This document shows, piece by piece, positions 17,592-32,416 of a stretch of DNA of 64,000 nt. The stretch comes from a virus. Position 1 is the first letter of the stretch. Every line of letters starts with the position of its first letter. A model generated the notes under the pieces. That model saw only the letters and a list, made by a program, of their open reading frames with translations. It ran no database searches and was not told the origin of the DNA. The position numbers and the translations under genes were made by a program. Location of the stretch: positions 1 to 64,000 of IMG/VR virus record IMGVR_UViG_3300045988_126851, one strand, 5' to 3'.

Positions 17592-18080
17592 ATGAATAAG
17601 ACAAATAGATGCCGAATATGTGGCAAATTCATTAATTTAGGGGATTTTGATATGAATCGAGAGATTCCTAAACTTATGAAAGCTCAGGATATTTGTTATG
17701 GATGTGCTTTTTGGTATACTCGATTAGAATATGATAAAAAGCTTGAAAAAGAGAAGAAAATTTCAGTGATTACTCCAGATTATTCTCATTGGATAACTCG
17801 AGTACCCGGAGATATTTTAATGGTCCCTTCAGCTTTCGGGGGAATTTACCAAACTAAACTCCAACCAGTAAACACTTTAGGAGTCATAGATCGAAGTAAG
17901 AAGGAGCTATACATTATCAGATATAATAATATCACTCACCAAGGTACTATTCCGGAGCATCTAAGAAAACTTTTTAAAGTAAACGGAGTATTTCTATCTC
18001 CACAGGAATACAAAATGTTAGAAGATTACCAAGGCAATGCCTATGAATTTATTAAAAATAAGATAGATAATTTTCAATAA
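17592..18080 (+). CDS. zinc-ribbon protein, function unknown
   Basis: CRICGKF...CYGCAFW cysteine pairs at the N terminus. It is the first gene of the plus-strand module. Confidence 0.55.
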   Translation: MNKTNRCRICGKFINLGDFDMNREIPKLMKAQDICYGCAFWYTRLEYDKKLEKEKKISVITPDYSHWITRVPGDILMVPSAFGGIYQTKLQPVNTLGVIDRSKKELYIIRYNNITHQGTIPEHLRKLFKVNGVFLSPQEYKMLEDYQGNAYEFIKNKIDNFQ

Positions 18081-18094
18081 TCAAATAAATTTAG

Positions 18095-18106
18095 TATATT
18101 TGCATA
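18095..18106 (+). promoter_or_regulatory. TATATTTGCATA promoter box (Bacteroidota -7 type TAnnTTTG)
   Basis: Exact 12-mer, with 20 nt between it and the ATG at 18127. Confidence 0.6.
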
Positions 18107-18126
18107 AACAAATTAATTAACGAATT

Positions 18127-18504
18127 ATGAAAGAAAAATTAAAAGAGGGTACAAGGGTAATCTACTCAAATTCAGAGAATCCTACCTTGATGGAAGAAGT
18201 AGAAGTAGTTTCGGTAGATAAAAAAGAAGGAGTTGCTGCTCTGAGTAATAAAGTAAAGGTAACTCGATTGCCTAATTTGGATGGAGTTTATAAAAGAGTA
18301 GGCAATAATCTTCAAGGATTTGCATTACCAATTAACTCAGAGAATGAGGAAAGATTTAAAAGGTTCAAGGCATATTTCTCTATCAAACGTTCTATAGAAA
18401 AATTAGCTTCTTATGGAGATGATATTAAAGGATGGGAAATCTCTAAATTAGAGAAGGTTCAAGGCAAATTATCCAAGGTAATCAACTTAATCGAAGAAAA
18501 ATAA
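18127..18504 (+). CDS. hypothetical protein
   Basis: 125-aa ORF preceded by the promoter box. Confidence 0.6.
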   Translation: MKEKLKEGTRVIYSNSENPTLMEEVEVVSVDKKEGVAALSNKVKVTRLPNLDGVYKRVGNNLQGFALPINSENEERFKRFKAYFSIKRSIEKLASYGDDIKGWEISKLEKVQGKLSKVINLIEEK

Positions 18505-18683
18505 TGTGGGTGATTCTTTACACAGTATATGCGGTTTGTTTTTTGCCAGCAGTGATTCTTACTAAGCTTTGTAAGAGATATTTGGGTTTAAATGAATTCA
18601 TTACTTTCATCAGTATCTGGTTAGTTTTGCCTTTGTTCCCAATATATTGTTTAATCCAATACTTAAAACATTTGAGATTATGA
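18504..18683 (+). CDS. small two-helix membrane protein (59 aa, below the ORF-track cutoff)
   Basis: MWVILYTVYAVCFLPAVILTKLCKRYLGLNEFITFISIWLVLPLFPIYCLIQYLKHLRL. Its ATG overlaps the upstream stop (TAATG) and its stop overlaps the next ATG (ATGA). Confidence 0.5.
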   Translation: MWVILYTVYAVCFLPAVILTKLCKRYLGLNEFITFISIWLVLPLFPIYCLIQYLKHLRL

Positions 18684-18916
18684 GACATTATTTCGATTCA
18701 AACAACAACTATAGAGGTTGGTCTGCCAGTACTCAAGAACTTATATTATACATATTGTTCTTGGTTTTATTCCCAGTTATAATTATATTTGGGGTATTAT
18801 TTTTTCCTTTAATTTATCTGGGTTGCTACTTTAATCAGGGTAAATTCTGGGAGAAGAATAAAATAGGCCTTACATTTGCCTTAGCATTCTGGGTAATTGC
18901 ATTATTCGTAATTTAA
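18680..18916 (+). CDS. small membrane protein
   Basis: The start is moved to MRHYFDS (ATGA coupling with the preceding small ORF). Two hydrophobic helices. Confidence 0.5.
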   Translation: MRHYFDSNNNYRGWSASTQELILYILFLVLFPVIIIFGVLFFPLIYLGCYFNQGKFWEKNKIGLTFALAFWVIALFVI

Positions 18917-19034
18917 AAGAGAAGTTAGATTTCCCCAGTCTTCGAAAAGTGAATGTAGAAGAGAATAAAGAAAAAGAAAAAGAACTATAATATAATGTTT
19001 CATTCATAAGAAAGATAGATGTAAAATTCTGTTG

Positions 19035-19076
19035 AAGATCCCGGACCTTAGAGAAGGTAATCCGGGATCTTTTTTA
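19035..19076 (+). terminator. intrinsic, probably bidirectional, terminator
   Basis: aagatcccgga...tccgggatctt followed by TTTT. It sits between convergent genes 18680..18916 (+) and 19074..19664 (-). Confidence 0.7.
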
Positions 19077-19664
19077 GTTAAAAACTATCCGATATAGAGT
19101 CCTAGAATCATGGGCGTCACTCTTATTAGTCAATCGTAGAGATACTTCATCTACTATACCAGTACCATTACTTAAGAATATTTCCCCTTCGTAATTTTTA
19201 AGACCTAATCCACTAACTGAACTTTTAAGTGTGAGATAGCTAGATTTACTGGGTGTTTTTAGTTCAAGCTCATAATCCTCTAACAGATCTTCTCTAAAAG
19301 TACACATCAGAAAGTATTTGATATCTGAACTGAAGTCATAATTGCTGCTATTCATCTTAATTCTACAATTATAGATAGGATAATTGGAACCATCATCATT
19401 AGTACCCACATTTACAAAATTAAAATAAGGTAGAAAGTCCAGAGTACCCACATTCTTTGGATAACCCGAAAATTTTATCAGTGAAGCAGTGTAGAAAGGC
19501 ATACTTTTTTGTAAAATTCTAACCTCTTGGGATTTATCTCCTGCAGTTCTTACTAATAAGTTAGTGGACCTATCCTTTGCAGAGGTATTAGGATCAGCCG
19601 TAATACTTACTGACGCATTCCCTTGCCCAGAATTTTGACTAACTGTAATAAATTCTTTTTTCAT
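19074..19664 (-). CDS. BACON-like-domain protein, paralogue 1
   Basis: N terminus MKKEFITVSQNSGQGNASVSITADPNTSAKDRSTNLLVRTAGDKSQEVRILQKS resembles the C-terminal half of the BACON / Bacteroidetes Ig-like domain (SP.SG.GN..v.v....N.s..R...l.v......v.i.Q). Confidence 0.55.
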   Translation of the reverse strand: MKKEFITVSQNSGQGNASVSITADPNTSAKDRSTNLLVRTAGDKSQEVRILQKSMPFYTASLIKFSGYPKNVGTLDFLPYFNFVNVGTNDDGSNYPIYNCRIKMNSSNYDFSSDIKYFLMCTFREDLLEDYELELKTPSKSSYLTLKSSVSGLGLKNYEGEIFLSNGTGIVDEVSLRLTNKSDAHDSRTLYRIVFN

Positions 19665-19788
19665 ATCTTTAAGCTTTTAGTGTTATTTAAGGTATAAGAG
19701 GAGATCTTGAGACCCCTTCTTATAATCACCTAACCCTGTGTAATAATGGTGAACTATTCTTATATGTAACTTAAAAATTATTTAGAGT

Positions 19789-20406
19789 ATGGAAAAGAAC
19801 TTTTTAAACATCACTCCAGAGAGTGGAAATGGAAATCAAGAAGTAACCGTAAATGCAAAAGCTAACGTCTCTCTAGAAGATCGAGAAGAGACGTTGAGAA
19901 TCAGATCCTCAACAGGGAAAGAGGCTTCTGTAAGAATAACCCAGGATGGTGTACCTTTTATGGCTCATATTGGAGTAGTACCTAGAAATATCTTCCCCGC
20001 AAGTACTGGACATCCTACAAATATTACCTTTTTAAAAACTACTTGGGATTCCGAAGGTATACCAACTACTGAACTGAAAGTAGCTAATTCAGATGAAAGA
20101 GAGCTTGAGTTTATACCATATTTCCAACTCCTAATCAGAAAGGATATAGCAGATGAATTATTACCTCCTGGGGAGTATGGAAACCCTGCGATGTATATTC
20201 AAGATGCTCTACTAGATCAATCTCTAACTGGTATTGGTATAAGCTTTAATCAAATTACTATAAAGGGGATTGAATATTATACTGCAGCAATAGAGGGATC
20301 TTACTATAAAGAAGATTTTCATGCTAGCATAGGATTATGCTATGAATATGAAGAGGTTGAATTATTCCGATTATGTACACAGAGATTTGATATTCACTGG
20401 TTCTAG
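19789..20406 (+). CDS. BACON-like-domain protein, paralogue 2
   Basis: MEKNFLNITPESGNGNQEVTVNAKANVSLEDREETLRIRSSTGKEASVRITQDG. The C-terminal region is diverged from the other paralogues. Confidence 0.55.
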   Translation: MEKNFLNITPESGNGNQEVTVNAKANVSLEDREETLRIRSSTGKEASVRITQDGVPFMAHIGVVPRNIFPASTGHPTNITFLKTTWDSEGIPTTELKVANSDERELEFIPYFQLLIRKDIADELLPPGEYGNPAMYIQDALLDQSLTGIGISFNQITIKGIEYYTAAIEGSYYKEDFHASIGLCYEYEEVELFRLCTQRFDIHWF

Positions 20407-20423
20407 AGAAAAATTATATAAAC

Positions 20424-20675
20424 ATGGTAACAGTAGAAAGAATTAGAGATGATAGTGAAAAGAGAATACTAAGATGTTCTGAGGGTAATAGAGTTTGGTA
20501 TCAGATGTGGATTGATCCCGAAGATATGCTAAGAATAGAACTACTATTGGAGGGAGGGAGTAGAACTTGGATGATAGAACTTCAGAAGTATTATGTATTC
20601 TTTTATGAGAGAAAGAATGGTAGAAGGATCTTAGGGAAGGATAGGATTAAGAAGATATTAGATACCCTTTTATAA
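20424..20675 (+). CDS. hypothetical protein
   Basis: 83-aa ORF between paralogues 2 and 3. Confidence 0.45.
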   Translation: MVTVERIRDDSEKRILRCSEGNRVWYQMWIDPEDMLRIELLLEGGSRTWMIELQKYYVFFYERKNGRRILGKDRIKKILDTLL

Positions 20676-20770
20676 AGAAGTGAAAGCCAGGGATGTTTGG
20701 TCTCTGGCTTCTTTGTGTGAAGTATATGGGGTATACTATAACCCCATATAAACCTTTAATATGTAAGTGT

Positions 20771-21403
20771 ATGGATAAAAGTTTTTTAAGTGTATCTCCA
20801 AGTGAAGGAGAAGGTAATGCTCAAGTAGTTATTAATGTTAAGGAAAATATGTCTCTAGATGAAAGGTCTGAGAGCCTTAATATCCGAACGAGTAATGGAG
20901 TAGAGAAGCAAGTGAGGATTACTCAGGATCCTGGTATGATCTTCTTCCCTACTATGCAAGTATCGGGCATCAAGGTAGGACAGGGAGAGCAGAAGTTTGC
21001 TTCCTTAAATCATTATCCTGTGATATCTCCCCAGAGTGATAAGAATTGGTTGGTAGATAGTATTAATATAGGGAACCTATTATTAAGCTTTACGAACGGT
21101 GGGGTAATAGTTTTTCGATTAAGGATTCTTATGAGAAAAAGTTTCTGGGAGAATTATACTCCTGAGATTAACCAGGGAGGTTCTACCTATTACCTTGAGG
21201 ATAAGAGTAAAGAGTTATATTCTATTGATGAATTTTGGTACCTTAAAGATGACTGGGTATATGTGGGATGGAATTGGAATATGGACTCTTCTGAAGGTTC
21301 TCATATTCCTTCTGCTACTTTAGATTATGATAATGGGGAAGGAGAGTATAAGACTTTATTTGAATGGAGATTCTCGGCTGATTCAATGGATTTATTACCT
21401 TAG
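20771..21403 (+). CDS. BACON-like-domain protein, paralogue 3
   Basis: The start is moved to MDKSFLSVSPSEGEGNAQVVINVKENMSLDERSESLNIRTSNGVEKQVRITQDPG (ATG at 20771). This N terminus aligns residue for residue with those of paralogues 1 and 2. Confidence 0.55.
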   Translation: MDKSFLSVSPSEGEGNAQVVINVKENMSLDERSESLNIRTSNGVEKQVRITQDPGMIFFPTMQVSGIKVGQGEQKFASLNHYPVISPQSDKNWLVDSINIGNLLLSFTNGGVIVFRLRILMRKSFWENYTPEINQGGSTYYLEDKSKELYSIDEFWYLKDDWVYVGWNWNMDSSEGSHIPSATLDYDNGEGEYKTLFEWRFSADSMDLLP

Positions 21404-21510
21404 TAAGGATTGGGAAGTTCTGGTATGCCCTTAATACGAAAGCCCAAAATCATGGCCTACTAAAAAGGGCGGACGGTTACGTTAATTTTAACATTTTAAA
21501 AATAAAGATA

Positions 21511-21540
21511 AGGGACAATGTTTTTATTGTCCCTTTTTAT
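21511..21540 (+). terminator. intrinsic terminator
   Basis: agggacaat-gttttt-attgtccct followed by TTTTAT. Confidence 0.75.
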
Positions 21541-21669
21541 TTCAGTCCTTAAAATACTCGTTTTCTTTGTTATTTAAACTTTCTTTTGTGTCTCTATACA
21601 TTTGCTTAATTAAAAGAAATAATGCAGCAAATAAAGCTATATTTAGTAATACCATAAAGAAGTTATTTA

Positions 21670-21695
21670 AAGGGAGTATTTTAAAATACTCCCTT
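21670..21695 (-). terminator. palindromic hairpin after 21707..22123
   Basis: aagggagtatttt/aaaatactccctt, 12 nt beyond the stop. The following U tract is weak. Confidence 0.45.
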
Positions 21696-21706
21696 ATATT
21701 AGTGTA

Positions 21707-22123
21707 TTATTTATTAAAATCTTTTACGATTTCAAGACCTTTTTTCAAAATCTCCTTTTTTTCTTCTTTAGTGTTTTCGCTTGCAATAGAAGCAAATGAA
21801 AAATCATTCAAAACGTATGCAGATTTATAAAAATCTAAAAAAGCCCCGATTAATTTTTCAGATTTATTTTCTACTATTGTAGAGAGCATAGAATAAGTGT
21901 AGTTTCTTAGTTTCTTTCTCGCTGCCTTTTTCTTTTTCTCATCCATGCCATCAAATAGAGTATTTTTATAAATCTCTGTTTTTTGTCCTAAAGAAGTTTT
22001 TAAAAGTCCGTTTGTTTTTTCTTTAGTTGTTTTAAACAACTCATTAAAAGAAATTGTAGCATTTGCTTTACTTGTTGCAATTGCTTTTTCTGCACTCACT
22101 TGATTTACTTTTGTTGTTGACAT
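21707..22123 (-). CDS. hypothetical lysine-rich protein in the AT-rich islet
   Basis: 138-aa ORF with an upstream TATATTTG-type box at 22228-22240 and a downstream hairpin. Confidence 0.55.
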   Translation of the reverse strand: MSTTKVNQVSAEKAIATSKANATISFNELFKTTKEKTNGLLKTSLGQKTEIYKNTLFDGMDEKKKKAARKKLRNYTYSMLSTIVENKSEKLIGAFLDFYKSAYVLNDFSFASIASENTKEEKKEILKKGLEIVKDFNK

Positions 22124-22227
22124 AATAAAAATACTTTTAGTTTTTATGTTTATTTTATTATAACCTTTTCTCTATAAAACTAAAAGATTTTATAAGAAAA
22201 AGAGAAAAGGTTTTTGTTTCATTTCTG

Positions 22228-22240
22228 TATTGCAAATATA
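22228..22240 (-). promoter_or_regulatory. promoter box variant (sense TATATTTGCAATA)
   Basis: The core TATATTTG lies about 105 nt upstream of the ATG at 22123. The long leader contains a hairpin with 12-bp arms (22162-22173 / 22201-22212). Confidence 0.45.
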
Positions 22241-22306
22241 AGAACTATTTTTTAATCTACAAAATTTTTTGAGATTTTTTTTTGAAAAATTTTTAGAGAG
22301 TATTTT

Positions 22307-22498
22307 TCAACTCTCTAAATTAAATCCCGTTAAATCTGTAATATTCTCTACATTTTTGATTAGCTCAAAAACTTCGTCCAAAGTTACATTATTTTTCTTT
22401 AATAAATAAGATGTTAGTTTTTTTGCTGCACTCATTGAAGAAATAGCTTCAATAAGATAATACTTTTCATCTGTTGTAATAACTAAATACTTTTTCAT
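22307..22498 (-). CDS. small hypothetical protein in the AT-rich islet
   Basis: The start is moved to MKKYLVITT (ATG 22496-22498), so that the promoter box at 22523-22534 lies 24 nt upstream, as at other genes. Confidence 0.45.
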   Translation of the reverse strand: MKKYLVITTDEKYYLIEAISSMSAAKKLTSYLLKKNNVTLDEVFELIKNVENITDLTGFNLES

Positions 22499-22522
22499 AA
22501 CCCTATTATTTTTGTTTTTCAC

Positions 22523-22534
22523 TATGCAAATATA
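22523..22534 (-). promoter_or_regulatory. TATATTTGCATA promoter box
   Basis: Exact 12-mer on the sense (minus) strand. Confidence 0.55.
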
Positions 22535-23025
22535 AAAACTTTATTTAGATTACGCAAATATTTAGAGAAAAATTTTCAAGAAAATGAAGTTTTTAAAAAT
22601 CAAAAATTTTAAAATTAAAATTTGCAAAAATCTAAAAATTGGAGAGGTTTTTAGATTGCACCCTAAAAAGTAGTTTAAAATTTGCACTTAAATTTGGGGG
22701 TACGTTCAAGCTTAAAATCACGCACGCTTTGTAGCTATATAGATTACCTGTATGAATAGAGAGAGTATTGGTTATAGGTATAGAAGTATCCCATAGGCCA
22801 TTAATGGTACCCAGTAGTAAATTTCTCTAAGGTCCTTCAAATTGCATAGGAAGCCATTAAGGGAATATTCTAGAAGGCTTATAGGTATAGAGGTATTAGA
22901 GCCTAATTACCTAATCTAATATAAGGCCATAGATAGTGATTTTGAAAATAGGGTGTAAGGTAAGAACATAAAAAGGTCCAGTACCAAAGTTAGGTCTGGA
23001 CCAAAGTTAGGCTTAGTAGGATTAA
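22535..23025. other. ORF-free block I sharing repeat modules with block II
   Basis: No ORF of 60 aa or more on either strand. Contains TTTGTAGCTATAT (22728-22740), GGCCATTAATGGTAC (22796-22810), two further GCCAT-type sites (22852, 22925), CCTAAT twice (22902, 22910) and ATAGGTAT repeats. Confidence 0.7.
22968..23001 (-). terminator. intrinsic terminator after 23026..23406
   Basis: ggtccag...ctggacc on the minus strand, followed by TTTTTATG. Confidence 0.65.
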
Positions 23026-23406
23026 TTAGCAAGTGAAAGGAACTGTTACCATGACCAATGTAGACCATATATGTATTAGGGGCATTTCTAGTGAAGCTTC
23101 GGGATCGAAAGGAAATACCTGATGTAATTGATTAGAGATTTCTAAAGATTCTTCTGGGGTAAGTGTATCGGGATCCTTAATGGTAAAGGACCATAGGTGA
23201 AAGCCTTGTTCCTCATGGTCGATAGTGTTAATGGATATTAGGGTTAACCGTTCTGGGATTTGGGTTTCCTGGATTTCAGAAAGGATAGGATAAATGTAAT
23301 CCTTGATCCCCTGTTCGAAATGAGGATAGGAATCAGGTGCAGCAATTAATGAAAGATTAATACTTTTTGCAAAATTAAATTCAGTGTTTAAAATACTTGT
23401 TCTCAT
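23026..23406 (-). CDS. small acidic hypothetical protein
   Basis: 126-aa ORF with its own promoter box and terminator, isolated between the two ORF-free blocks. Confidence 0.55.
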   Translation of the reverse strand: MRTSILNTEFNFAKSINLSLIAAPDSYPHFEQGIKDYIYPILSEIQETQIPERLTLISINTIDHEEQGFHLWSFTIKDPDTLTPEESLEISNQLHQVFPFDPEASLEMPLIHIWSTLVMVTVPFTC

Positions 23407-23434
23407 AAGTCTATCTTTAATTAGTTATTATTAC

Positions 23435-23446
23435 AATGCAAATATA
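23435..23446 (-). promoter_or_regulatory. promoter box variant (sense TATATTTGCATT)
   Basis: The core TATATTTG lies 28 nt upstream of the ATG at 23406. Confidence 0.5.
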
Positions 23447-23875
23447 AATATTAAATATTATATATGCAAATCCTCAATTGCTTTATAGGAGTACCTAAGG
23501 GCCTTGATTATATTTTTAAATCCTTGAGGCCATGAATGGAGTAAGGCCATAATCCTAATTTGCCTTATAACCTTTACCCTATATAAACCTATACCTAATA
23601 AGGCAATCAAGGTACCCCTAAATCACAAAATGTCCTAGAATTATTGCATTTATCAATAATATAAATACTAATGCAATAACTTACATAGTTACTAGGATAA
23701 TTGCCTAATAATCCCCTATGATTACCTATAAAATCCTATTTCTAGGTACCTTGAAGGCAATTATAATCCCCAAGAGATCCTAATTTACCCCTGAATAAGA
23801 GAGATCAGTAAAAGGCAACATCCTACAAACAACCGTACACTGCCTTTTTAACACGTAGCCTATTTTATCAACTAT

Positions 23876-23889
23876 TATATATATATATA
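23876..23889. repeat. (TA)7 tract
   Basis: tatatatatatata, located at the point where the hexamer orientation and the G/C skew switch. Confidence 0.95.
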
Positions 23890-23967
23890 CTAATATAAAA
23901 GGTAAATTAGGCAAATGGCAAATAGAAGGCCATTAATCGACTACTGTACTAAAGCTATAGTACACTC

Positions 23968-23983
23968 CTACAAACGTTTGTAG
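23968..23983. repeat. perfect 16-bp palindrome
   Basis: ctacaaac/gtttgtag. It overlaps a copy of TTTGTAGCTATAT (23977-23989). Confidence 0.95.
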
Positions 23984-24034
23984 CTATATGACTATCTGTA
24001 TTATAATTACCTTTTACCTTCACATGCCTTACCT

Positions 24035-24048
24035 TATATATATATATA
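24035..24048. repeat. (TA)7 tract
   Basis: tatatatatatata followed by tgtatata. Confidence 0.95.
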
Positions 24049-24620
24049 TGTATATAATAAGCGGCCATTAATGGTACTGGGATTATGAGGATTTTATGGA
24101 GATTAGGGGCCTTTTTATTGCCTTTTTGTGATTACCTTAAAATGAGCCAAGTAGCTCTAGAGTATAGTAGCTATATAGTAATGTGGTATGTTTTGTATAG
24201 TAAGTAGGGGGATTGCCTTGAGGTACCTCAAATTTTCGAAACCCCCGGGGATACCTTGTATATGTATCTTAGATATGTATTATATGATATGAGTATTAAT
24301 AGTAATGATGATATATGGTAATAGGTATTAGTGTATTATATGAGGTATAGGATATGATTATATTGATTAGGTATATAGGTATTATGTATACCTTTAGTGT
24401 ATAGGTTCTTTATTATTTCTCTTTTGTTTTTGTTTGGGGAGGGGGATTGGTTATAGGTACCTTTGTATTAGGATCATTAAGGTGGTATATATTATTAGGA
24501 TTAGGATTTGTGATATTAGGTACCTTATTTTGTTTGTTGGGGGGGATTGGTAGGTGTTCTCATTGTGTATGAGGATTAGGATGGTGATTAGGGATAGGAT
24601 TACCTTTAGGTATGTGATAT

Positions 24621-24869
24621 TCATGGTAGTGGGATTATATCGATTATGGTTATATCACTTAGATTTATTTGTAATATCCCTCTTAACCTTAGCCTTATGA
24701 ATTCTGAGTGAAGGTGGTTGTTGTTTATTTCTTGGTGGGGGTAGCGAAAGTAAGGATTTAGTTCCTCAGTTCTGTATGGGATTACCATTTCCTCTGTGAA
24801 ACCCTCTGTGTAGTCTTTAGTGTGACCTGGTACCTCGAAAGATACCAGGAATTCCCCTTTTGTTAGCAT
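24621..24869 (-). CDS. small hypothetical protein
   Basis: 82-aa ORF, the last gene before ORF-free block II. It overlaps the upstream gene by 7 nt. Confidence 0.45.
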   Translation of the reverse strand: MLTKGEFLVSFEVPGHTKDYTEGFTEEMVIPYRTEELNPYFRYPHQEINNNHLHSEFIRLRLRGILQINLSDITIIDIIPLP

Positions 24870-25246
24870 GGCTCTAGTTCATTAGTTAGTATTCGGATAT
24901 CGGTATATTGATTCATGTATTCCTCTTCTGAAGATATGTCTAAGCATTTACATGCTATGTAGTGACCGTACATCGATATACCCGATTTATAGCCCTGGTC
25001 TTCGTTTAGGAAGTAGGCTAATCCTTTCCTATTGATTTCGATTACGGGGTAAGGAGGTTCTCCATTGGTTGCTTCCTTATCGAAGGTAGCAAAGTCATAA
25101 GTATCCGTATTATCAGTCATGGTAGCAAATATTTCTATTAGCCAGGTAAAATCCTCTAGAGGTACTTTATCTAGCCATTCCCATCCGATTGGGTAATCGT
25201 TTATGGTTATGGTTAAGTTACTGAGAATAGTTGAATTTAGTTTCAT
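24863..25246 (-). CDS. small acidic hypothetical protein
   Basis: 127-aa ORF rich in D/E, W and Y. Confidence 0.5.
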   Translation of the reverse strand: MKLNSTILSNLTITINDYPIGWEWLDKVPLEDFTWLIEIFATMTDNTDTYDFATFDKEATNGEPPYPVIEINRKGLAYFLNEDQGYKSGISMYGHYIACKCLDISSEEEYMNQYTDIRILTNELEPC

Positions 25247-25347
25247 ATTTTGTTAGTTGAGTTGAGGGTTAAAAGCGGATTGGGTTGGTTTAATATTTCT
25301 GAGTAGAACACAAGTTAGATTGCGATCTTGATCAGGAACTCCCACTA

Positions 25348-25590
25348 TTACGTAGAAATATAAGGGATCTTTTGGTATATCAAATATGAATGCTGATACC
25401 TTTCTTTCCCCATTTCTATTCGTTCGATATGGGTATTTTCTAGTTTTCCGTTTAGTAGTACATGAGATAAATATTCTTTGATAGCTTGGGATTCTCTTTC
25501 TGGTTTGAAATCCCAGGTATTTAGCATATCGTTAAACCATTCAGGATTATCGCAGAGTTTTATTAATTGGTTTTTGATGTATTCTGTCAT
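25348..25590 (-). CDS. small hypothetical protein
   Basis: 80-aa ORF with a 4-nt overlap with the upstream gene. Confidence 0.5.
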   Translation of the reverse strand: MTEYIKNQLIKLCDNPEWFNDMLNTWDFKPERESQAIKEYLSHVLLNGKLENTHIERIEMGKERYQHSYLIYQKIPYIST

Positions 25591-25862
25591 TTTCCGTAAT
25601 GTTTTAGTTCTTTGTTATATTCGGGGTATTTATTCTCGTAGTAGTCATAAAGATAAGTGTATTCGTCATCTCCAGACCAGCAATCTATGAAGTATTCATA
25701 TTGATCCTCTGTTGCTTGTGATGGGTGTATATGCAAAGTGTATTTGCAGTAATGTTCCCATACCGTTTTTGGTTGAAAGTTATTCTTGGTAGGGAAAAGC
25801 ATAATAGCTATCACGGTAGCTATCAAGGCAATTAGTATTAATTTGATTCTAGTCATGATCAT
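25587..25862 (-). CDS. small membrane-anchored protein
   Basis: N-terminal helix IKLILIALIATVIAIMLF and an acidic, Tyr-rich C terminus. Confidence 0.5.
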   Translation of the reverse strand: MIMTRIKLILIALIATVIAIMLFPTKNNFQPKTVWEHYCKYTLHIHPSQATEDQYEYFIDCWSGDDEYTYLYDYYENKYPEYNKELKHYGK

Positions 25863-26218
25863 AAGGGTTTAGCGATTACTGATATAAAGCCCTGTGGGTA
25901 TAGAGTATAAAAGATTTGGTAATCTCCATTTGGTAAGAATACTTCCAGGATATTTGCTAGCAATGGGTAGATTTTCCATTGGTTATCTTCTAGGAAGGTT
26001 ACCCAGTCCTTTATTTCATCATCTAAATAGTTCCCAGTGAGTTGAATGTGATAGGTTTCTTGATCCGGGACAAATACATTGGTTACTACCTGAATCTCAT
26101 TGGATTCCTTTTTGTATTGAAGAATGGGATACCAGATGCCTTCGGTTTTCCATTTATTAAGTTGGAATAGGGACATACCCTGTTCTAGAGTGTTGAGCAG
26201 TTTATATAAATTTATCAT
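25859..26218 (-). CDS. small hypothetical protein
   Basis: 119-aa ORF with 4-nt overlap coupling. Confidence 0.5.
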   Translation of the reverse strand: MINLYKLLNTLEQGMSLFQLNKWKTEGIWYPILQYKKESNEIQVVTNVFVPDQETYHIQLTGNYLDDEIKDWVTFLEDNQWKIYPLLANILEVFLPNGDYQIFYTLYPQGFISVIAKPL

Positions 26219-26223
26219 AGGGA

Positions 26224-26745
26224 TTAGGATTTTAGTGACTGGAATAATTTAGAGATATACAAGGACTTTATAAGATCAGGAGTAAGGTGATCTTCTTCCC
26301 ATTTTACAAGAGCTTTATATAGTTCATCATAGGTATTTACCATATCTTCGTCCTGTTCTTCATCTTGGATAAATTCCCAGAGATGTTTTTTAAGTTTGTT
26401 GAGGATTTCCTCTTGGTGATCTGGGGATAATTTGGTAATACCAAAGATGATTGCCTCTACCTGTGAGGGTGAGTAATCACGGTATTGGTCATCGGCACCT
26501 TCCGTTAAATTCATACGGGAGATAAGGTTTTCATTTAGGTTTTCGAATAAGGTTTCTTCTGAAGAATAAATAATAAGGTAGCCAGAAATGGAAGAAGCAA
26601 GAGGGTCATTGCCCAAATCGATTGAGTAAACTTGGATACCTCTGTTATATGGATTAATGTAGAGCCCATCGGTGTAGTCATAAGTATAAATGGGATGGGA
26701 AGCAAGCAAGTTGCCGATGTCGATTAAATTTTTTAACTGTTTCAT
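26224..26745 (-). CDS. acidic hypothetical protein
   Basis: 173-aa ORF preceded by promoter-leader cassette copy 1. Confidence 0.55.
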   Translation of the reverse strand: MKQLKNLIDIGNLLASHPIYTYDYTDGLYINPYNRGIQVYSIDLGNDPLASSISGYLIIYSSEETLFENLNENLISRMNLTEGADDQYRDYSPSQVEAIIFGITKLSPDHQEEILNKLKKHLWEFIQDEEQDEDMVNTYDELYKALVKWEEDHLTPDLIKSLYISKLFQSLKS

Positions 26746-26811
26746 AATGTCTATATTTAAATTGTTTTTCTATGCAAATATAATCATTTTTATTTTTATA
26801 GAAAAATATAT
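26743..26811 (-). repeat. promoter-leader cassette copy 1 (69 nt, includes ATG and TATATTTGCATA at 26771-26782)
   Basis: cataatgtctatatttaaattgtttttctatgcaaatataatcatttttatttttatagaaaaatatat. It differs from copy 2 at one position. Confidence 0.9.
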
Positions 26812-26933
26812 CAAAAGAATTTTTAATCAAAAGGGAGTTCCCAGTCCCTGTTAGTGATAGGTTTTATCATAATAATCAGTGATATTGAGAACTCCCATAA
26901 CGGCAAATGAAAGAAAGTGATTAAGTTTTGGTA

Positions 26934-27350
26934 TTAGTATAGTTCATCTGCCAGGCTTGGTTCTGGGTTATCAGATTCTTTTTCTTTAATTACGCATTCG
27001 TTACATTTTGTAGAGGATGAGGCTCTAGTGAATTTTTGATATGAGAATTGTTTGGTGTCCTCATCATAGGCAAATCTAAATATACCTTTACGGGCAATTC
27101 TCTTCCCGTAAGTTTTCTTTAGATTGTTATACCAGTCCATATATTCCTGAGGAGATTTAAAGATTTCTTCTTTGCCCTCTTGATCAGGATCTTTGCTTAT
27201 GGGTCTTACCCTCCAGTTAACCTTAATCTGATCAGGTAACATAGTTAGCGATAAAAAATATCGTGTCCAAGTACCTAACATAATGTTTCCAGTTTCCATC
27301 TCAATTGTAGAGGGAACCATTAATTGTGGAGTATAACAGTATTTTCTCAT
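26934..27350 (-). CDS. hypothetical protein
   Basis: 138-aa ORF with a 4-nt overlap with the upstream gene. Confidence 0.5.
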   Translation of the reverse strand: MRKYCYTPQLMVPSTIEMETGNIMLGTWTRYFLSLTMLPDQIKVNWRVRPISKDPDQEGKEEIFKSPQEYMDWYNNLKKTYGKRIARKGIFRFAYDEDTKQFSYQKFTRASSSTKCNECVIKEKESDNPEPSLADELY

Positions 27351-27727
27351 GATATAGAAAAGTTAAGTTGGAAAATCCAGCTGTTTTTATCGAGTTGATT
27401 GAATGATATGAATGTACCGTCGTTATCCGTAAAAGCATTCATAAATTCAATAGCAACCTGGGTTAATTGTCCCTTATAGGGATTAGTATCAGCAGTTATG
27501 GCAGATTCGAAAATAAATGTATAATATGCCGTATCCTCTATTTGTACTTGGTTAATATCCAAGCAATTGAGTTTGTAATCGTCCTCTAATCTGATTAGAA
27601 GTTCCATTAAGAGATTACAGAGATTACCCTGTTCATCTGAATCGAGTTCAAATGTAGATTTCTTGTCTAAGAAATTACGAACTACCTTTAATGTTTGGGA
27701 GTCGTTGTAAGTTACTGAATTTTTCAT
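27347..27727 (-). CDS. small acidic hypothetical protein
   Basis: 126-aa ORF preceded by cassette copy 2. Confidence 0.55.
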   Translation of the reverse strand: MKNSVTYNDSQTLKVVRNFLDKKSTFELDSDEQGNLCNLLMELLIRLEDDYKLNCLDINQVQIEDTAYYTFIFESAITADTNPYKGQLTQVAIEFMNAFTDNDGTFISFNQLDKNSWIFQLNFSIS

Positions 27728-27793
27728 AATGTCTATATTTAAATTGTTTCTCTATGCAAATATAATCATTTTTATTTTTATAGAAAAATATAT
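27725..27793 (-). repeat. promoter-leader cassette copy 2 (box at 27753-27764)
   Basis: 68 of 69 nt identical to copy 1. Confidence 0.9.
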
Positions 27794-27797
27794 TCTT

Positions 27798-28196
27798 TTA
27801 TTTTTCTATGGAGCTGAGGATGTAAGAAAGGTTACTTGTCTTCTTCAGTTCATCAAAAGCAATAGAAAGGCAATCTTCTTTATTGGCAAGAGAAGGAATT
27901 TCGAATTTACTAAAGAAATCCCTTATCGAATTCTTTAAGTATTCAGTAAGAGCTTCCGATATCTCTTTAGAGTCATAGGCTGAAATCAGGTTTTTTCTCA
28001 ACTCCATAAGATCTTCTTCGGATTTTATTAGTGAATCAGATTCTTTAATAAGAAAGAAGTTACCCTTATTAGTGATACCTTTTTGATAGCCGAGGTCTAT
28101 GATTTGATTCACAAATTTCCTATATAGGTCTCTGCTAACCTTGAAATAATTATCTCGATCTAAATTGAAGTATAGTGAGATTGAGGGTAATAACAA
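27798..28196 (-). CDS. hypothetical protein
   Basis: 132-aa ORF ending exactly at the cassette boundary. The start codon is uncertain. Confidence 0.45.
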   Translation of the reverse strand: MLLPSISLYFNLDRDNYFKVSRDLYRKFVNQIIDLGYQKGITNKGNFFLIKESDSLIKSEEDLMELRKNLISAYDSKEISEALTEYLKNSIRDFFSKFEIPSLANKEDCLSIAFDELKKTSNLSYILSSIEK

Positions 28197-28326
28197 GTTG
28201 AATAACTTTAGAGGTTCTTCCCTTATTTAGCTATGTTATTAGTATCCTCTACATGGATGCTTCTAATCTCTAAGCATAATCCATTATCTAACTGAACTAG
28301 TAAGTTTACTGATTGTAGTTGATTTT

Positions 28327-29001
28327 TCATAATTCTGTATCTTTTGTTTTATCGTTAATGAATGATTGAACTTCTCGGTGTATGATGTTAGAAACTACTA
28401 CTTGATCCTTAGCAGTTTCCTCTATCTTAGTTATTTCTTCAGAGATAAAAGCAGCAAGAAAATCAGAAGAGTTCTTATAATAAGCTACCCATTCTTTTAT
28501 CCAGTTAGCCTCTAAGTAATACCTGTAATTACCAAAAAGATCTTCAATAGCAAGATTAGTATTAGCATAGGGGCTAACAAGATTCCTGATATTGCATAGC
28601 AGATCGGCATATTCCTCTGGTATTCTCAAAGACCGAGGAATATCGTCTAAATTTGATATATCAGGTATGAAATGGGTTTTATAAAGTGATTTTAGGGGCT
28701 TTTGATAACCTAAGCTTAGATTAAAAGCTTCTTTAGAATATAAAAGAGAGAAGAAGTACATGAATCTGTAGTACATTAAGTTTGGTACTATATCATATAC
28801 TTTGTAATATTTCTGATAGTCGTTATATAGCTTGATGTAGATCTTATCGTCAAATATTGCAAAGGTTCTCAACATATAAGGAATGTTGAACTCTAGATCG
28901 TTATAGAAATCAGCAAACCTGATATTCTTCTGATCATCCAAATAAAGTAAGTTCTTGCAGTATTTTAGCTGCTGTTCTGGTTTTTTCTTAAATAAGTTCA
29001 T
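28327..29001 (-). CDS. hypothetical protein
   Basis: The start is moved to MNLFKKKPEQQ (ATG 28999-29001), 4 nt after the stop of the upstream gene. This removes an 83-nt overlap. Confidence 0.5.
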   Translation of the reverse strand: MNLFKKKPEQQLKYCKNLLYLDDQKNIRFADFYNDLEFNIPYMLRTFAIFDDKIYIKLYNDYQKYYKVYDIVPNLMYYRFMYFFSLLYSKEAFNLSLGYQKPLKSLYKTHFIPDISNLDDIPRSLRIPEEYADLLCNIRNLVSPYANTNLAIEDLFGNYRYYLEANWIKEWVAYYKNSSDFLAAFISEEITKIEETAKDQVVVSNIIHREVQSFINDKTKDTEL

Positions 29002-29005
29002 GTGA

Positions 29006-29221
29006 TTAAAATGTAAAGTCAATGTATATCTTTCTTGTTCCCTTGAGAAATTTTTCGTGATTTGAGTCATCATACTTATGGCAAGCATAAGTCTTAGATG
29101 ATTTATCGTAATGGTCTCTTACCCATACTGGAGCAGTATCTGTAGGTTTCAGTTTAAAATATGTACCTTGATTAACTTTGTTAACCGTGGTTTCTTTGTA
29201 GGTTGGTTTTAATGTTTCCAT
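29006..29221 (-). CDS. small hypothetical protein
   Basis: The start is moved to METLKPTYKE (ATG 29219-29221), 22 nt downstream of the promoter box at 29244-29255. The longer listed ORF would run through the promoter and the terminator. Confidence 0.5.
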   Translation of the reverse strand: METLKPTYKETTVNKVNQGTYFKLKPTDTAPVWVRDHYDKSSKTYACHKYDDSNHEKFLKGTRKIYIDFTF

Positions 29222-29243
29222 ATTTTGTCTATTTTTAAATTGA

Positions 29244-29255
29244 TATGCAAATATA
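29244..29255 (-). promoter_or_regulatory. TATATTTGCATA promoter box
   Basis: Exact 12-mer. Confidence 0.55.
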
Positions 29256-29297
29256 ATTCTTTTTATTAAATTATGCAATAACCCCATAAACATAGAG

Positions 29298-29324
29298 AAG
29301 CCCCGATTATAGATGTCGGGGCTT
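29298..29324 (-). terminator. hairpin terminator after 29328..30227
   Basis: aagccccga...tcggggctt immediately after the stop, with a moderately U-rich tail. Confidence 0.5.
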
Positions 29325-29327
29325 AGT

Positions 29328-30227
29328 TTATTTAGATAAGAATCGGGCCGTAAATGGAGTATCATCCTCTTCCTCCTCTATTTCTTCATAGGATATTAGT
29401 TCTGGGTCTTCTTCATCTGGATCAATCCTCATCTCTATTTCTCTTCTCAGTTCATGATGCTCCCTTGAAGAAACTTCTAATGCCCCTTTATAATCATCAG
29501 TTATCTGAGTTAACTCTTGTTTATTGATATTAAGACCCTCTTTACTAACATCTACTCCCTCTTGCTTAGTAGCAACTACCTCGGGCAATGAACTAAGATC
29601 ATATTTAGCTTCTAGGAGTTTAGCTTCTTCTGTTTTATCTTGAATCTTTTGAGATTCTAAAATAATCTTTCTAGCTTCCTCTATACTAATGCCCTGTTCT
29701 TGCTGAATATTGTTCTGTTGATTGAATTGATTGAAGATATTAGTAGTACCATTCCCAGTGAACCCTCTTATCAATGATTGAAGAGAATTAGTAGAATCCA
29801 GCTTCATTTTCAAAGCCTTGTTCAATTCAGCAGAAATAAAGGGCATATACTTCCCACCCTGTGAATCTCTTAATAGATTAACCTGATGAGATACTTCCAT
29901 TCTATCCTCTAATACCCATGCTAATTGTTCTCCAAGTAAGGCTTCTATAAGTGATTCTTGTTTATCCTTATCCCATATCCTACTTGACAGAAGTCTATCT
30001 CTCATGAATACTCTTATCTGATTAACGTCTATCCCTAACTTATTAGAGAAAGTGTTAATATCATAAGTAACACCACAAAGTACTCCATTACCCAATAACC
30101 ATTGGTTTATAAGGTAATTTTGTACTTTTAATAAATCCTCAGGCTTTTGGGTTTTCTGATACTCTAATGCAAGAGCAGTAGTTCCCATTGGTCGAGGAAA
30201 TCTCTTTATTTTATCTTTTCCTTCCAT
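29328..30227 (-). CDS. hypothetical protein with acidic C terminus
   Basis: 299-aa ORF. Confidence 0.55.
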   Translation of the reverse strand: MEGKDKIKRFPRPMGTTALALEYQKTQKPEDLLKVQNYLINQWLLGNGVLCGVTYDINTFSNKLGIDVNQIRVFMRDRLLSSRIWDKDKQESLIEALLGEQLAWVLEDRMEVSHQVNLLRDSQGGKYMPFISAELNKALKMKLDSTNSLQSLIRGFTGNGTTNIFNQFNQQNNIQQEQGISIEEARKIILESQKIQDKTEEAKLLEAKYDLSSLPEVVATKQEGVDVSKEGLNINKQELTQITDDYKGALEVSSREHHELRREIEMRIDPDEEDPELISYEEIEEEEDDTPFTARFLSK

Positions 30228-30486
30228 ATAAGTGAGCCTTTCTTATATCTTTAGATTCTTCATATCCAATCTTTTCTAAGGTATAACAGATGAAAGCGTT
30301 TATACTCTGATTATAGAAATATCCTTTATATCTATCCTTACCATAGAATAAACTAAAAGCTACACCAGAGAGTAAATCCCTGGTGTAAATTAATCTCTCT
30401 TTTCCTAATATGGGGATTTCTAAACAAATCCTATAATCGGATGCCTTAAATTTATTGCCATGAAGATCGATTATTTCTCTTACCAT
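30211..30486 (-). CDS. hypothetical protein
   Basis: 91-aa ORF in a tightly overlapping operon. Confidence 0.45.
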   Translation of the reverse strand: MVREIIDLHGNKFKASDYRICLEIPILGKERLIYTRDLLSGVAFSLFYGKDRYKGYFYNQSINAFICYTLEKIGYEESKDIRKAHLYGRKR

Positions 30487-30874
30487 AATTTGCCTTTTTA
30501 GGGTCCGAGGATTTTTTGTCTTGTTTACTATGGCTATTTAATTGCCTTTGCTCTTCGATCCTTTTTTGCATTTTCGGATATAACCTTCTCCTTAGGGGAA
30601 CTACCTGAGTTGCAAAAAAGGCATTCCATAATTTCTGGGATAAAGGTTCTCCAACTTTGAGTTTGGATATTGCCCAGAATTTAGATTCGAAATTCTTCAC
30701 TATTTCTCTGAATCGATAATAATAGATAATACCCGATTTATTATCTCTTCCGATAGTAGTAGTTTGGCAATATTCCAGAAACTCTTTACCTAATTCGGAT
30801 ATGAATTCTTCCCTTTTAAAATCAAAGTTCTCTTGATCTAGTTTGAATAATTTTACGTAATCGATTGCTTCCAT
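30452..30874 (-). CDS. hypothetical protein
   Basis: 140-aa ORF with a basic C terminus. Confidence 0.5.
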   Translation of the reverse strand: MEAIDYVKLFKLDQENFDFKREEFISELGKEFLEYCQTTTIGRDNKSGIIYYYRFREIVKNFESKFWAISKLKVGEPLSQKLWNAFFATQVVPLRRRLYPKMQKRIEEQRQLNSHSKQDKKSSDPKKANYGKRNNRSSWQ

Positions 30875-30880
30875 ATAAGT

Positions 30881-31240
30881 TTAGTGATTAATTAACATTA
30901 TAGGTCTGGGGATTTCCTCATCTGTGATTTGGAATAAATATCCCCTTATATCATCCTCATAGTATGAAGACCAATAAGTTCTCCGGATTCTAAAATTATC
31001 TAAGATTGCCCCTTTGGGGATTCCAGTAACGAATAATCGATGTTTGGGCATTACGGGAGTGATTTCGAATTTACCCTCTTTAAAGTTACCAAAAGTACAA
31101 TAATCTGGCATATTACCAGTGAATCCGGTAGGTTGTAATACATCTTGGATTAAAGCAGTTTGAGGTATTTCTCTTTGATTGCATTCGATGGTCAATTTCG
31201 ATTTGCCTATATATAGGTCTTTAACTATTTCTCTAAACAT
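30881..31240 (-). CDS. hypothetical protein
   Basis: 119-aa ORF. Confidence 0.5.
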   Translation of the reverse strand: MFREIVKDLYIGKSKLTIECNQREIPQTALIQDVLQPTGFTGNMPDYCTFGNFKEGKFEITPVMPKHRLFVTGIPKGAILDNFRIRRTYWSSYYEDDIRGYLFQITDEEIPRPIMLINH

Positions 31241-31521
31241 CTGTATATAATTATGTGAGTGATACCATTCTTTTTAAAGTAAGAGCCATCTTTAGAATGT
31301 TCCTCTAACTTTTTCAATTCTCTTCGAGATTCAGTACAAACCCTATCCGATTTCCTTAATATACCAAAAGCGTTATCCCATATAGGGGTCATAGGATCAA
31401 CTGGCCCTGCATATATTACCTGATGCCTTGCCATAATTTGAGGATATTTGGATTTGTACTGGTATTTACCCTTGAGGTAAAGTACATTATACTTTTCTAG
31501 ATTTTCTTTTTCGTTTAACAT
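31225..31521 (-). CDS. hypothetical protein
   Basis: 98-aa ORF. Confidence 0.45.
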   Translation of the reverse strand: MLNEKENLEKYNVLYLKGKYQYKSKYPQIMARHQVIYAGPVDPMTPIWDNAFGILRKSDRVCTESRRELKKLEEHSKDGSYFKKNGITHIIIYRCLEK

Positions 31522-31786
31522 TGGCTTTGTTGTTATTGATATAATCTGATATCTGATCTAATTGATTTAAAACTAAGGCTTGTACAAATATTGATATAGG
31601 CCTGAAAAAGTAATTCCTTACGTTCTTTGGATTGATATACCAATCGTAGATTATAAAGAACTTCTTAATCTTAGAATGCTTAAGTGATCTCTGAACTAAA
31701 TAAGTCTTACAACATCTTTTATGTAATTCTAGCAGTTCTTTATCTTGCTTAAGCATCTCCTTTTCTGAGAAGATGATATAGTCCAT
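31487..31786 (-). CDS. hypothetical protein
   Basis: 99-aa ORF. Confidence 0.45.
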   Translation of the reverse strand: MDYIIFSEKEMLKQDKELLELHKRCCKTYLVQRSLKHSKIKKFFIIYDWYINPKNVRNYFFRPISIFVQALVLNQLDQISDYINNNKANVKRKRKSRKV

Positions 31787-31804
31787 TAATTTAAGAAGAG
31801 ATAT

Positions 31805-31830
31805 AAGTCCCAGGTGAGTTCCCGGGACTT
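31805..31830 (-). terminator. hairpin after 31848..32324
   Basis: aagtccc(a)gg...cccgggactt. The U tract is weak. Confidence 0.4.
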
Positions 31831-31847
31831 AGGTTAATGGTTTGTAA

Positions 31848-32324
31848 TTATGCAACCTGCTCTGGTTTGAGAACCTTTTTCTTGAAGTCCTCATATTTCT
31901 TAGCAGCATCCTTGAACTCTTTAGAATTTTGATCCTTGATACGGAACATTTCCCGTTCAAGTCTATGTAATTCGTTTCGAGTTTGTTGTCTCCATTTCTT
32001 ACGGGCAAGTGTATCAGTTATATCCTCAGGGTATACGTATTTCACTTCCCGATTGGAAATCACTTGTTCAATGATTGAGGGTTTTTGTTGTTGTTTTACT
32101 TCCTTGATGGTTTCTTCCTTCTTGAATTTCTTTCCCTTTGGTTTGAGTTCTACCAATTTAGCCTTAGAGAATTCTTTGGCAGCTTCTTTAGATTCTTCTA
32201 CCAATTGTTTCTTGGTCTTTTGGCCTTTGGCTTTAGTAGTTTTTGACTTGGAAACTTGTTCCTTAACTTCGTTCAACTGATTAGCAACTAAGGTTGCAAT
32301 AGTGTTTTCTAAATTCTTTTTCAT
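31848..32324 (-). CDS. lysine-rich hypothetical protein
   Basis: 158-aa K/E-rich ORF preceded by cassette copy 3. Confidence 0.55.
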   Translation of the reverse strand: MKKNLENTIATLVANQLNEVKEQVSKSKTTKAKGQKTKKQLVEESKEAAKEFSKAKLVELKPKGKKFKKEETIKEVKQQQKPSIIEQVISNREVKYVYPEDITDTLARKKWRQQTRNELHRLEREMFRIKDQNSKEFKDAAKKYEDFKKKVLKPEQVA

Positions 32325-32362
32325 AATGTCTATATTTAAATTGTTTCTCTATGCAAATATAA
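32322..32362 (-). repeat. promoter-leader cassette copy 3 (41 nt, box at 32350-32361)
   Basis: cataatgtctatatttaaattgtttctctatgcaaatataa, identical to the first 41 nt of copy 2. Confidence 0.9.
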
Positions 32363-32416
32363 GAATAATATATTATTCTACAAAAGAAAAATAAATTTAT
32401 TTTCTAAATTCTAAGG

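Follow-up and report, generated by a model that had tools for sequence, protein, structure and literature searches.

Rho loads on unstructured RNA with regularly spaced C residues (rut sites), and Rho-dependent terminators, made of rut and pause sites as in lambda tR1, are defined by composition. Promoters of the Bacteroides primary sigma factor, as Bayley et al. reportedly described in 2000, carry a -33 TTTG and a -7 TAnnTTTG element. Here we describe a 1.2-kb stretch of phage DNA (positions 23407-24620, hereafter the hub) within a 64-kb window, the whole stretch of DNA analysed, from IMG/VR record IMGVR_UViG_3300045988_126851. It runs from a 57-aa membrane-protein gene through a G-free tail, a conserved non-coding core and a skewed left arm to a promoter motif (Table 1). 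We tentatively favour the reading that this stretch is a composite boundary between two transcription units, in which an untranslatable Rho-loading tail is followed by regulator sites and then by a promoter; in our view, the hub resembles a transcription boundary more than an established origin of replication.

The hub shares with Rho-dependent terminators an untranslated tail of at least 80 nt past the last stop codon, a large excess of C over G, little structure and a cluster of G+C palindromes thereafter. It differs in that C reaches only 21-23%, in that 122 nt without G exceed described rut sites, and in that the tail is one part of a conserved 1-kb region that has many further boxes. The promoter at the far end, with both elements at 20-nt spacing, is an ordinary member of the Bacteroides primary-sigma class and shows no difference from it. 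PeSLs, which Arbiol et al. are said to have reported in 2010 as promoter-plus-stem-loop mobile regulatory cassettes in the hyperplastic regions of T4-type phages, resemble the hub in their repeated early-type promoters, in conserved non-coding DNA flanking small variable genes of unknown function, and as a hotspot of gene gain, gene loss and homing-endonuclease insertion; however, PeSLs span tens of nucleotides, not 1 kb, and lack both the strand-composition arms and the GGCCAT/GGTACC box set. The P4 ori/crr and the T7 primary origin likewise spread short motifs over hundreds of bases and combine an A+T-rich low-stability segment with a nearby promoter, and P4 crr finds a parallel in a second related site ~1 kb away in this phage. 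Unlike those origins, the hub has no identified initiator gene, no window-scale skew inflection and no single defined octamer, and its centre is optional.

We rate the gene and the promoter as ordinary; what is new is a conserved ~1-kb element partly defined by composition. To our knowledge, it has no close counterpart among known phage elements. The region is described nowhere in the literature searched, including the description of the proposed family 'Flandersviridae', which holds nothing on cis-acting DNA (PMC8008677).

Conservation and strand composition of the hub

For the comparison, 92 IMG/VR loci were retrieved with flanking proteins (labels of the type L051). The 1.2-kb stretch is alignable in 57 distinct relatives at 55-96% nucleotide identity and conserved in at least 58 related ~85-kb gut phages, over which the presence counts given below were taken. 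In human gut metagenomes, these ~85-kb phages rank with the most prevalent, and none has been cultured. In the distant relatives L051 and L042, a ~1-kb gap keeps the same layout, with most of its sequence and the upstream gene being different. The 1-kb element, whose layout and composition are kept across at least 58 relatives, is a concrete experimental target. MT121964, the closest GenBank phage and a family-level relative, is syntenic elsewhere but has no equivalent gap; a blastn search of the hub against 50,697 GenBank phage records gave no match, and a scan of 185,579 species genomes for the hub box gave 0 matches. A pattern taken from the membrane-protein gene matched 4 contigs among those genomes, all in metagenome-assembled genomes and uninformative on the host.

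The two arms of the hub have opposite strand composition, a claim of the first-pass annotation that its own hand counts had already captured well: 23521-23880 contains G 41 and C 79 (about 42 and 80 by hand), and 24241-24600 contains G 95 and C 20 (about 97 and 20). The run without C on the plus strand, put at roughly 120 nt, is exactly 122 nt long (24269-24390). It is the only C-free run of at least 60 nt in the window, and its length was reached in 0 of 5000 shuffles of the region and in 9 of 5000 shuffles of the right arm only. Opposite composition of the arms is kept in nearly all of the 57 aligned relatives. On the left, C exceeds G on the plus strand in 83-100% of relatives for every aligned 60-nt block; on the right, the longest C-free run measures 47-122 nt (median 77).

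Read from the gene strand, the ~190 nt past the stop codon (24259-24450) hold C 44 and G 6 (23% C, 3% G), and the window maximum of C-over-G excess for minus-strand RNA lies at 24258-24635. Within the G-free tail, the sequence is hypervariable and the composition conserved: indels are not multiples of 3, and recent perfect tandem duplications involve different units in different relatives. Composition that is kept while sequence and length turn over by tandem duplication is expected of a composition-defined element. The ordinary intergenic leaders of this phage are also G-free, but for only 40-47 nt.

The skew has a wider setting as well. Twelve consecutive minus-strand genes (23026-29088) show a C > G bias on the coding strand, with skews of -0.07 to -0.67 in eleven and +0.01 in the gene at 26934-27350; at third codon positions, all twelve are skewed, by -0.07 to -0.59. 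Elsewhere in the window, the majority of genes have G > C on the coding strand, and no other gene block has C > G. Because of this block, the cumulative GC skew of the window rises only between ~18 kb and ~29 kb.

Table 1 Features of the hub and its surroundings, listed along the minus strand where possible
Feature	Position	Strand	Description
Membrane-protein gene	24451-24624	-	57 aa, hydrophobic, two predicted membrane helices, MNITYLKVILSLITILILIHNENTYQSPPTNKIRYLISQILILIIYTTLMILIQRYL
G-run module, non-coding copy	24428-24450	-	CCAATCCCCCTCCCCAAACAAAA on the gene strand, directly past the stop codon
G-free tail	24269-24390	-	No G on the gene strand; 79% A+T and 21% C in minus-strand RNA
Palindrome cluster	24206-24258		TTGAGGTACCTCAA at 24218-24231, TTCGAA at 24235-24240, CCCCCGGGG at 24242-24250
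Most conserved non-coding block	24119-24200		GCCTTTTTG...GTAGCTCTAGAGTATAGTAGCTATATAG; per-position conservation 0.84-0.89
Site B	24063-24074		GGCCATTAATGG palindrome, conserved in relatives
Facultative central module	23876-24048		Bounded by two (TA)7 tracts; GGCCATTAATCG at 23928, 16-bp palindrome at 23968-23983
Left arm	23540-23880		C > G on the plus strand (G-rich gene strand); CCTAAT x4, GGTACC x2
Site A	23528-23539		GGCCATGAATGG near-palindrome; ends ~58 nt upstream of the promoter -33 element
Bacteroidetes-type promoter (by motif)	23470-23439	-	TTTG-N20-TATATTTG, before gene 23026-23406
Cassette gene	23026-23406	-	126 aa, no known family, variable
Second non-coding stretch	22523-23025		~500 nt, GC ~26-30%, ends in promoter motif 22558-22527

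A 57-aa membrane-protein gene ends the upstream operon

The hub had been described as free of open reading frames (ORFs) of 60 aa or more, which is literally true but misleading: a real gene of 57 aa lies at its right end and was missed for falling below the 60-aa cut-off. Homologous ORFs of 57-71 aa were found in 54 of the 58 relatives and are kept in 52, with ILSxxTILxLIxNExxYQ...PTNKxRY as the common pattern. Of 184 indels in the segment, 160 have lengths divisible by 3, as opposed to indels of mostly 1 or 2 nt in three neighbouring non-coding segments, and third codon positions are 1.6-1.7x as variable as the others, in the expected phase. The ATG overlaps the stop codon of the upstream 82-aa gene as ATGA. 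The exact protein, which has no family match in Pfam or PHROGs, is a called gene on three public contigs; public gene calls thus already list what a 60-aa cut-off hides.

The gene changes the meaning of several motifs. ATTAGG does occur at all nine positions reported for it, but its interpretation as an iteron does not hold for the majority: six of the nine copies lie in the gene in a single codon phase, xxC-CTA-ATx, and encode Leu-Ile. The same gene holds two GGTACC copies and one G-run module, which encodes Q-S-P-P-T-N-K. Outside it, ATTAGG still occurs 3 times versus 0.32 expected, a count reached in 24 of 5000 shuffles, and the four CCTAAT copies (23554, 23594, 23704 and 23779) compare with 0.21 expected in arm-matched shuffles. 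The switch from CCTAAT to ATTAGG, however, is a consequence of the composition flip, CCTAAT being hardly possible in C-poor sequence. As a lesson of method, hexamer 'iterons' in strongly skewed DNA can be mere Leu-Ile codons of a membrane protein.

Some relatives (L008, L093, L038, L075, L027 and others) carry extra small genes beside the membrane-protein gene, among them those for a basic protein of 55 aa (MKKKDLIYIPHQDTW...) and for another hydrophobic protein, of 48 aa (MKSLILLIVTIWLLILNEE...). The locus therefore gains and loses very small genes.

The non-coding remainder and its possible functions

The other ~980 nt (23471-24450) are non-coding: no reading frame is maintained across relatives, and indel lengths do not follow multiples of 3. 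A blastx search of this segment against all ORFs of at least 60 aa from ~90 loci returned only spurious overlapping ORFs of near-identical relatives and no decayed gene, a case that the first-pass annotation had raised. Small upstream ORFs starting at ATGGCC were rejected, as the window and its relatives read different frames, and so was the idea that the left arm is a pseudogene of the membrane-protein gene in inverted orientation (frames not kept, blastx empty).

We propose the following course of events. After the two-helix membrane-protein gene, the mRNA of the upstream operon would run into the ~190-nt tail, where it would be naked: untranslatable because the absence of G over 122 nt leaves no possible ATG, GTG or TTG, and unstructured because no G-C pairs form. 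With its regularly spaced C residues, the tail could act as a rut-like Rho loading zone or a similar insulator. A scan of the window found no terminator-like hairpin past the stop codon of the 57-aa gene. The tail ends abruptly at the palindrome cluster, whose conserved CCCCCGGGG/GGTACC palindromes may mark a pause, release or protein-binding site; CCCCCGGNG is present in 58 of 58 relatives, and CGGGGGTTTTTCGAAAA is kept even in the distant L051. Beyond it, the GGCCAT(N)AATGG, AGGTACC and AAGGCAAT boxes of the core (24060-24260) and of the G-rich left arm are predicted sites for phage or host regulators, until the promoter would restart transcription, now of an exchangeable gene cassette. Cassette exchange probably also makes use of the conserved non-coding flanks as recombination linkers. 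Convergent Rho-utilisation zones had been suggested for both arms; the right arm fits, as minus-strand mRNA would enter it, but the left does not, as no plus-strand unit or promoter feeds it.

Support for the boundary comes from the retention of the layout in distant relatives and from a repeat of the design within the same phage. The second non-coding stretch is a shortened version of the layout that also ends in a promoter motif. Its copies of GGCCATTAATGGTAC, GTAGCTATATAG, ATTGGTTATAGGTA and TAGGTATAnAGGTATTA point the same way as those of the hub, and a GGCCAT box lies in it at 22925. Should the tail prove a Rho-loading insulator, it would show how a phage separates operons in a host whose translation is not led by Shine-Dalgarno sequences.

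Several points weigh against this view. About 1 kb is long for a terminator plus a promoter, and many conserved boxes have no assigned factor; the G-rich left arm in particular has no specific explanation besides 'binding sites'. For a rut site, 21% C in the G-free run is modest. In L051, an 11-bp terminator-like hairpin precedes the C-rich arm, which may thus not be transcribed from upstream in that phage. Strand-asymmetric mutation bias without selection could also be the source of the skew, because the twelve-gene block is C > G biased too, third codon positions included. Finally, a role of Rho in Bacteroides phages is itself a candidate function, proposed here from sequence.

These ~980 nt show no structured RNA either. 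A tRNA/tmRNA scan found none, and Rfam gave no match at gathering score (best E-value 0.51, to an unrelated Plasmodium RNA). RNAalifold in sliding windows on both strands detected no covarying structure; the best energy of a non-coding block was -9 kcal/mol with unfavourable covariation terms, and strong energies arose only from the inserted gene of some relatives. Folding z-scores for the whole region were only -2.0 and -1.5. A long hairpin between the arms was rejected, the inverted matches being short (13-24 nt) and not co-linear for a hairpin. We regard it as very unlikely that the hub is a long, weakly structured non-coding RNA, be it a G/U-rich plus-strand antisense RNA of a type I toxin-antitoxin system or a protein-sponge RNA. 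Such a role would suit conserved non-coding DNA that adjoins the gene of a small hydrophobic protein, and a right-arm plus strand almost devoid of C and rich in GGA and AGG. Yet the one plus-strand match to a Bacteroidetes-type promoter (24433-24465) is not kept in relatives, Rfam family and covariation are lacking, and the membrane-protein gene is translationally coupled within an operon, unlike type I toxins.

The enrichment of several short motifs in the hub is genuine, and the hub is organised and conserved as the first-pass annotation had stated; its motif counts lay above shuffled controls. GGTACC occurs 5 times versus 0.08 expected (5 of the 20 copies of the window) at 23611, 23745, 24222, 24456 and 24519, three of these positions having been given 1-2 nt off. 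Per hub, AGGTACC averages 4.4 copies (0.69 expected) and AAGGCAA 4.2 (0.66 expected), and AAGGCAAT motifs are enriched in the non-coding core. GGCCAT boxes reach 2.5 per kb in the hubs of relatives versus 0.37 per kb in the flanks, and 6 of the 12 in the window fall within 22796-24063 on one strand. Among the GGCCAT(N)AAT sites listed earlier, the one at 23545 reads GGCCATAATC and does not fit; the others stand. The 10-bp palindrome CCATTAATGG has one perfect copy in the region (24065) and a second outside it (22798), and the G-run module does recur (24428-24451 and 24528-24551), as a direct repeat with a spacing of 100 nt, not 102. L051 and L042 retain a related box, CCCCACTCCCAACAAAG, with no membrane-protein gene ahead of it.

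Conservation is unevenly spread over the core. In the block at 24119-24200, entropy is as low as at first and second codon positions of the neighbouring gene, and all 58 relatives have its GCCTTTTTG box. Perfect copies of the GTAGCTATATAG box are limited to this block and position 22731; confined to two non-coding stretches, the box was rejected as a phage-wide promoter. Site B is a candidate binding site for a dimeric protein, and site A is kept in nearly all relatives, appearing in L051 as GCCATAAATGGCCTC. The left arm, which also contains AAGGCAAT-type boxes and a conserved block (23658-23715), evolves fast yet keeps its skew. The central module of ~170 nt is present in 36 and absent from 22 of the 58 phages, being cleanly missing from L050, L090, L093, L078, L075 and L063. 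Its two (TA)7 tracts (23876 and 24035) are indeed the only copies in the window, but they occur in only 6 of 58 relatives, and its perfect 16-bp palindrome, though real, is present in only 1 of 58 and unique to this phage.

These results bear directly on the replication origin that the first-pass annotation had proposed. On that account, the non-coding core would bind initiator or host proteins at the GGCCAT(N)AATGG, AGGTACC and AAGGCAAT boxes, melting would take place in the A+T-rich G-free segment or in the TA tracts, and the composition of the arms would record opposite strand exposure around the start; initiation might be primed by transcription (R-loop), as at T7 and T4 origins. A conserved cis-element of ~1 kb without coding or RNA-structure signal is what such a site might look like, with several short motifs enriched 5-7 fold in every hub; in L051, the motif CTAGGTACACAA of one arm recurs as its reverse complement in the opposite arm. 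The flip of the GC and AT skews around the centre has the sign that divergent forks would produce. The phage has genes for a DnaB-like helicase and PolA, yet neither an initiator nor an origin has been recognised in it. At window scale, however, the cumulative skew turns at ~18 kb and ~29 kb, not at the hub, and the left-arm skew spans only ~360 nt before the plus strand is G-rich again. Duplex stability at 24259-24380 and 23860 ranks with the lowest in the window; ordinary promoters reach a similar depth. The enriched boxes are scattered at irregular spacing, without tandem, helically phased iterons; DnaA boxes number 22 versus 21.8 expected, with none in the hub.

Among the neighbouring genes, no initiator is recognisable within ~6 kb, and the replication module is at least 14 kb away. 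The proteins of 29 neighbouring ORFs (17592-36845) have no informative Pfam match, and 8 of 9 nearby ones have no PHROGs match. A 127-aa neighbour has 904 homologues, all unnamed or hypothetical; a PDB profile search with it came back empty, and its AF2 model (pLDDT 53) is unreliable. Considering also that the centre is optional, that part of the left arm can be replaced by a gene and that MT121964 has no equivalent gap, we regard an origin as unlikely. The earlier proposal is weakened rather than refuted: its right-arm iterons are mostly codons, and its AT-rich centre is facultative. With similarly low confidence, the core at ~23880-24450 may be an origin or another essential cis-element of 'Flandersviridae'-like phages, with 22700-23000 as a paralogous second site. 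An origin would permit replicon and vector design for Bacteroides phages.

Plasticity, promoters and the wider phage

The zone around the hub is plastic, with extra small genes, an endonuclease gene, the optional centre and different downstream cassettes. In L022, L059, L067, L010 and L034, much of the left arm is replaced by a free-standing gene of 97-144 aa (MKHRTHKDF.SYRFYSDGRI...), called HNH/NUMOD4-like from its sequence motif and putatively of homing type. Such turnover raises the question of whether the hub is mainly a neutral leftover spacer between mobile cassettes, shaped by strand-biased mutation and slippage, whose conserved blocks persist only as homology linkers between co-infecting phages, like T4-type PeSLs. 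In line with this, the arms change more quickly than third codon positions in the adjacent gene, tandem duplications are recent, contigs of relatives break at the borders of variable segments, and the composition bias is common to the adjacent 6-kb gene block, third codon positions included. Against it, the 24119-24200 block and the invariant CCCCCGGNG and GCCTTTTTG boxes are conserved like first and second codon positions, the layout persists in relatives whose sequence has largely diverged, and a compact phage genome seldom keeps 1 kb without function. Neutral plasticity strikes us as quite unlikely to be the main explanation.

Many contigs of relatives, complete-length ones included, end in or near the hub. 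Together with non-coding, oriented short repeats around a centre, which recall the P1 pac site, this could indicate a packaging site or physical genome ends (pac, cos or a terminal repeat). We consider this the least probable of the readings. The ends scatter over more than 1 kb (~23000-24300) and pair at the borders of variable segments—L025/L052 at the end of the G-free run, L082/L069 inside the optional module, L061/L080 near site B—and more than 40 contigs read straight through. The terminase genes (11534-14696) are ~9 kb away, and the centre of the hub is optional. We read the scattered ends as branch points of the assembly graph caused by within-sample heterogeneity, not as a physical terminus.

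At the downstream end of the predicted transcription boundary, the promoter motif lies 33 nt 5' of the ATG of gene 23026-23406 and is predicted to drive that gene; its -7 element with an [AT]TTG -33 element is kept in 51 of 58 relatives. Scanning for TTTG-N19-21-TAnnTTTG upstream of genes on the same strand placed the motif just before three more minus-strand genes (32384-32354, 22558-22527 and 22263-22233), and generic sigma-70 and terminator scans gave fewer matches than shuffles. A uniform family, TTTGCAT(A/T-rich)TTATATTTG, precedes small genes of unknown function both in the window phage and in the distant relative MT121964 (copies at 101, 68841, 70970, 74072, 75422 and others). It provides a first transcription map of the region and could serve to map early transcription units across the group.

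The 126-aa cassette protein has homologues in only 14 IMG/VR loci; other relatives have different small genes in the slot. On the minus strand, a hairpin (22975-23002) and then a T-run come after its gene. Further on, genes 20693-21403 (+) and 21707-22123 (-) converge on a G+C-rich hairpin (21505-21545, aagggacaatgtttttattgtccctttt) with A-runs and T-runs at its sides, which looks like a two-way intrinsic terminator.

The window derives from a tailed phage with nearly all genes on the minus strand, encoding a family A DNA polymerase, a DnaB-like helicase, RecA, an SbcC-like ATPase and a major capsid protein. 'Flandersviridae' genomes have a median length of 85.2 kb and comprise a structural block, DnaB/DnaG/PolA and then ~20 kb of unknown ORFs; their hosts are Bacteroides and Parabacteroides (PMC8008677). 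By its gene order and its ~85-kb relatives, the phage appears to fit this family, an assignment made from the published description and not from direct sequence comparison. The hub lies at the downstream end of the 20-kb unknown-ORF locus of this layout, in a region of small, variable genes. The phage looks lytic and of Bacteroides type, the latter because its promoters follow the Bacteroides consensus and neighbouring proteins carry BACON domains; the BACON domains of three proteins (19074-21403, Pfam) were the only matches above curated cut-off when neighbouring ORFs were searched against Pfam and PHROGs.

Some of the relatives' contigs show peculiarities. Those behind L042, L048, L050 and L060 measure 168-173 kb, about twice the genome length, and may be dimeric assemblies. 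The last ~150 nt of the L074 contig copy the membrane-protein gene region in inverted orientation and look like a chimeric end of the assembly.

Two large genes of the window phage appear to be interrupted. The 848-aa protein at 11534-14080 (-), which we take to be the large terminase, contains an intein with an HNH_3 plus NUMOD4 endonuclease, and MT121964 matches only ~311 aa of it in a single aligned piece. In the 1107-aa family A DNA polymerase (50031-53354, -), the Pfam polymerase-domain match ends at profile position 300 of 381, and the match to MT121964 falls into three pieces with 70% covered, which suggests an insertion, for example an intein or a mobile element, inside the gene.

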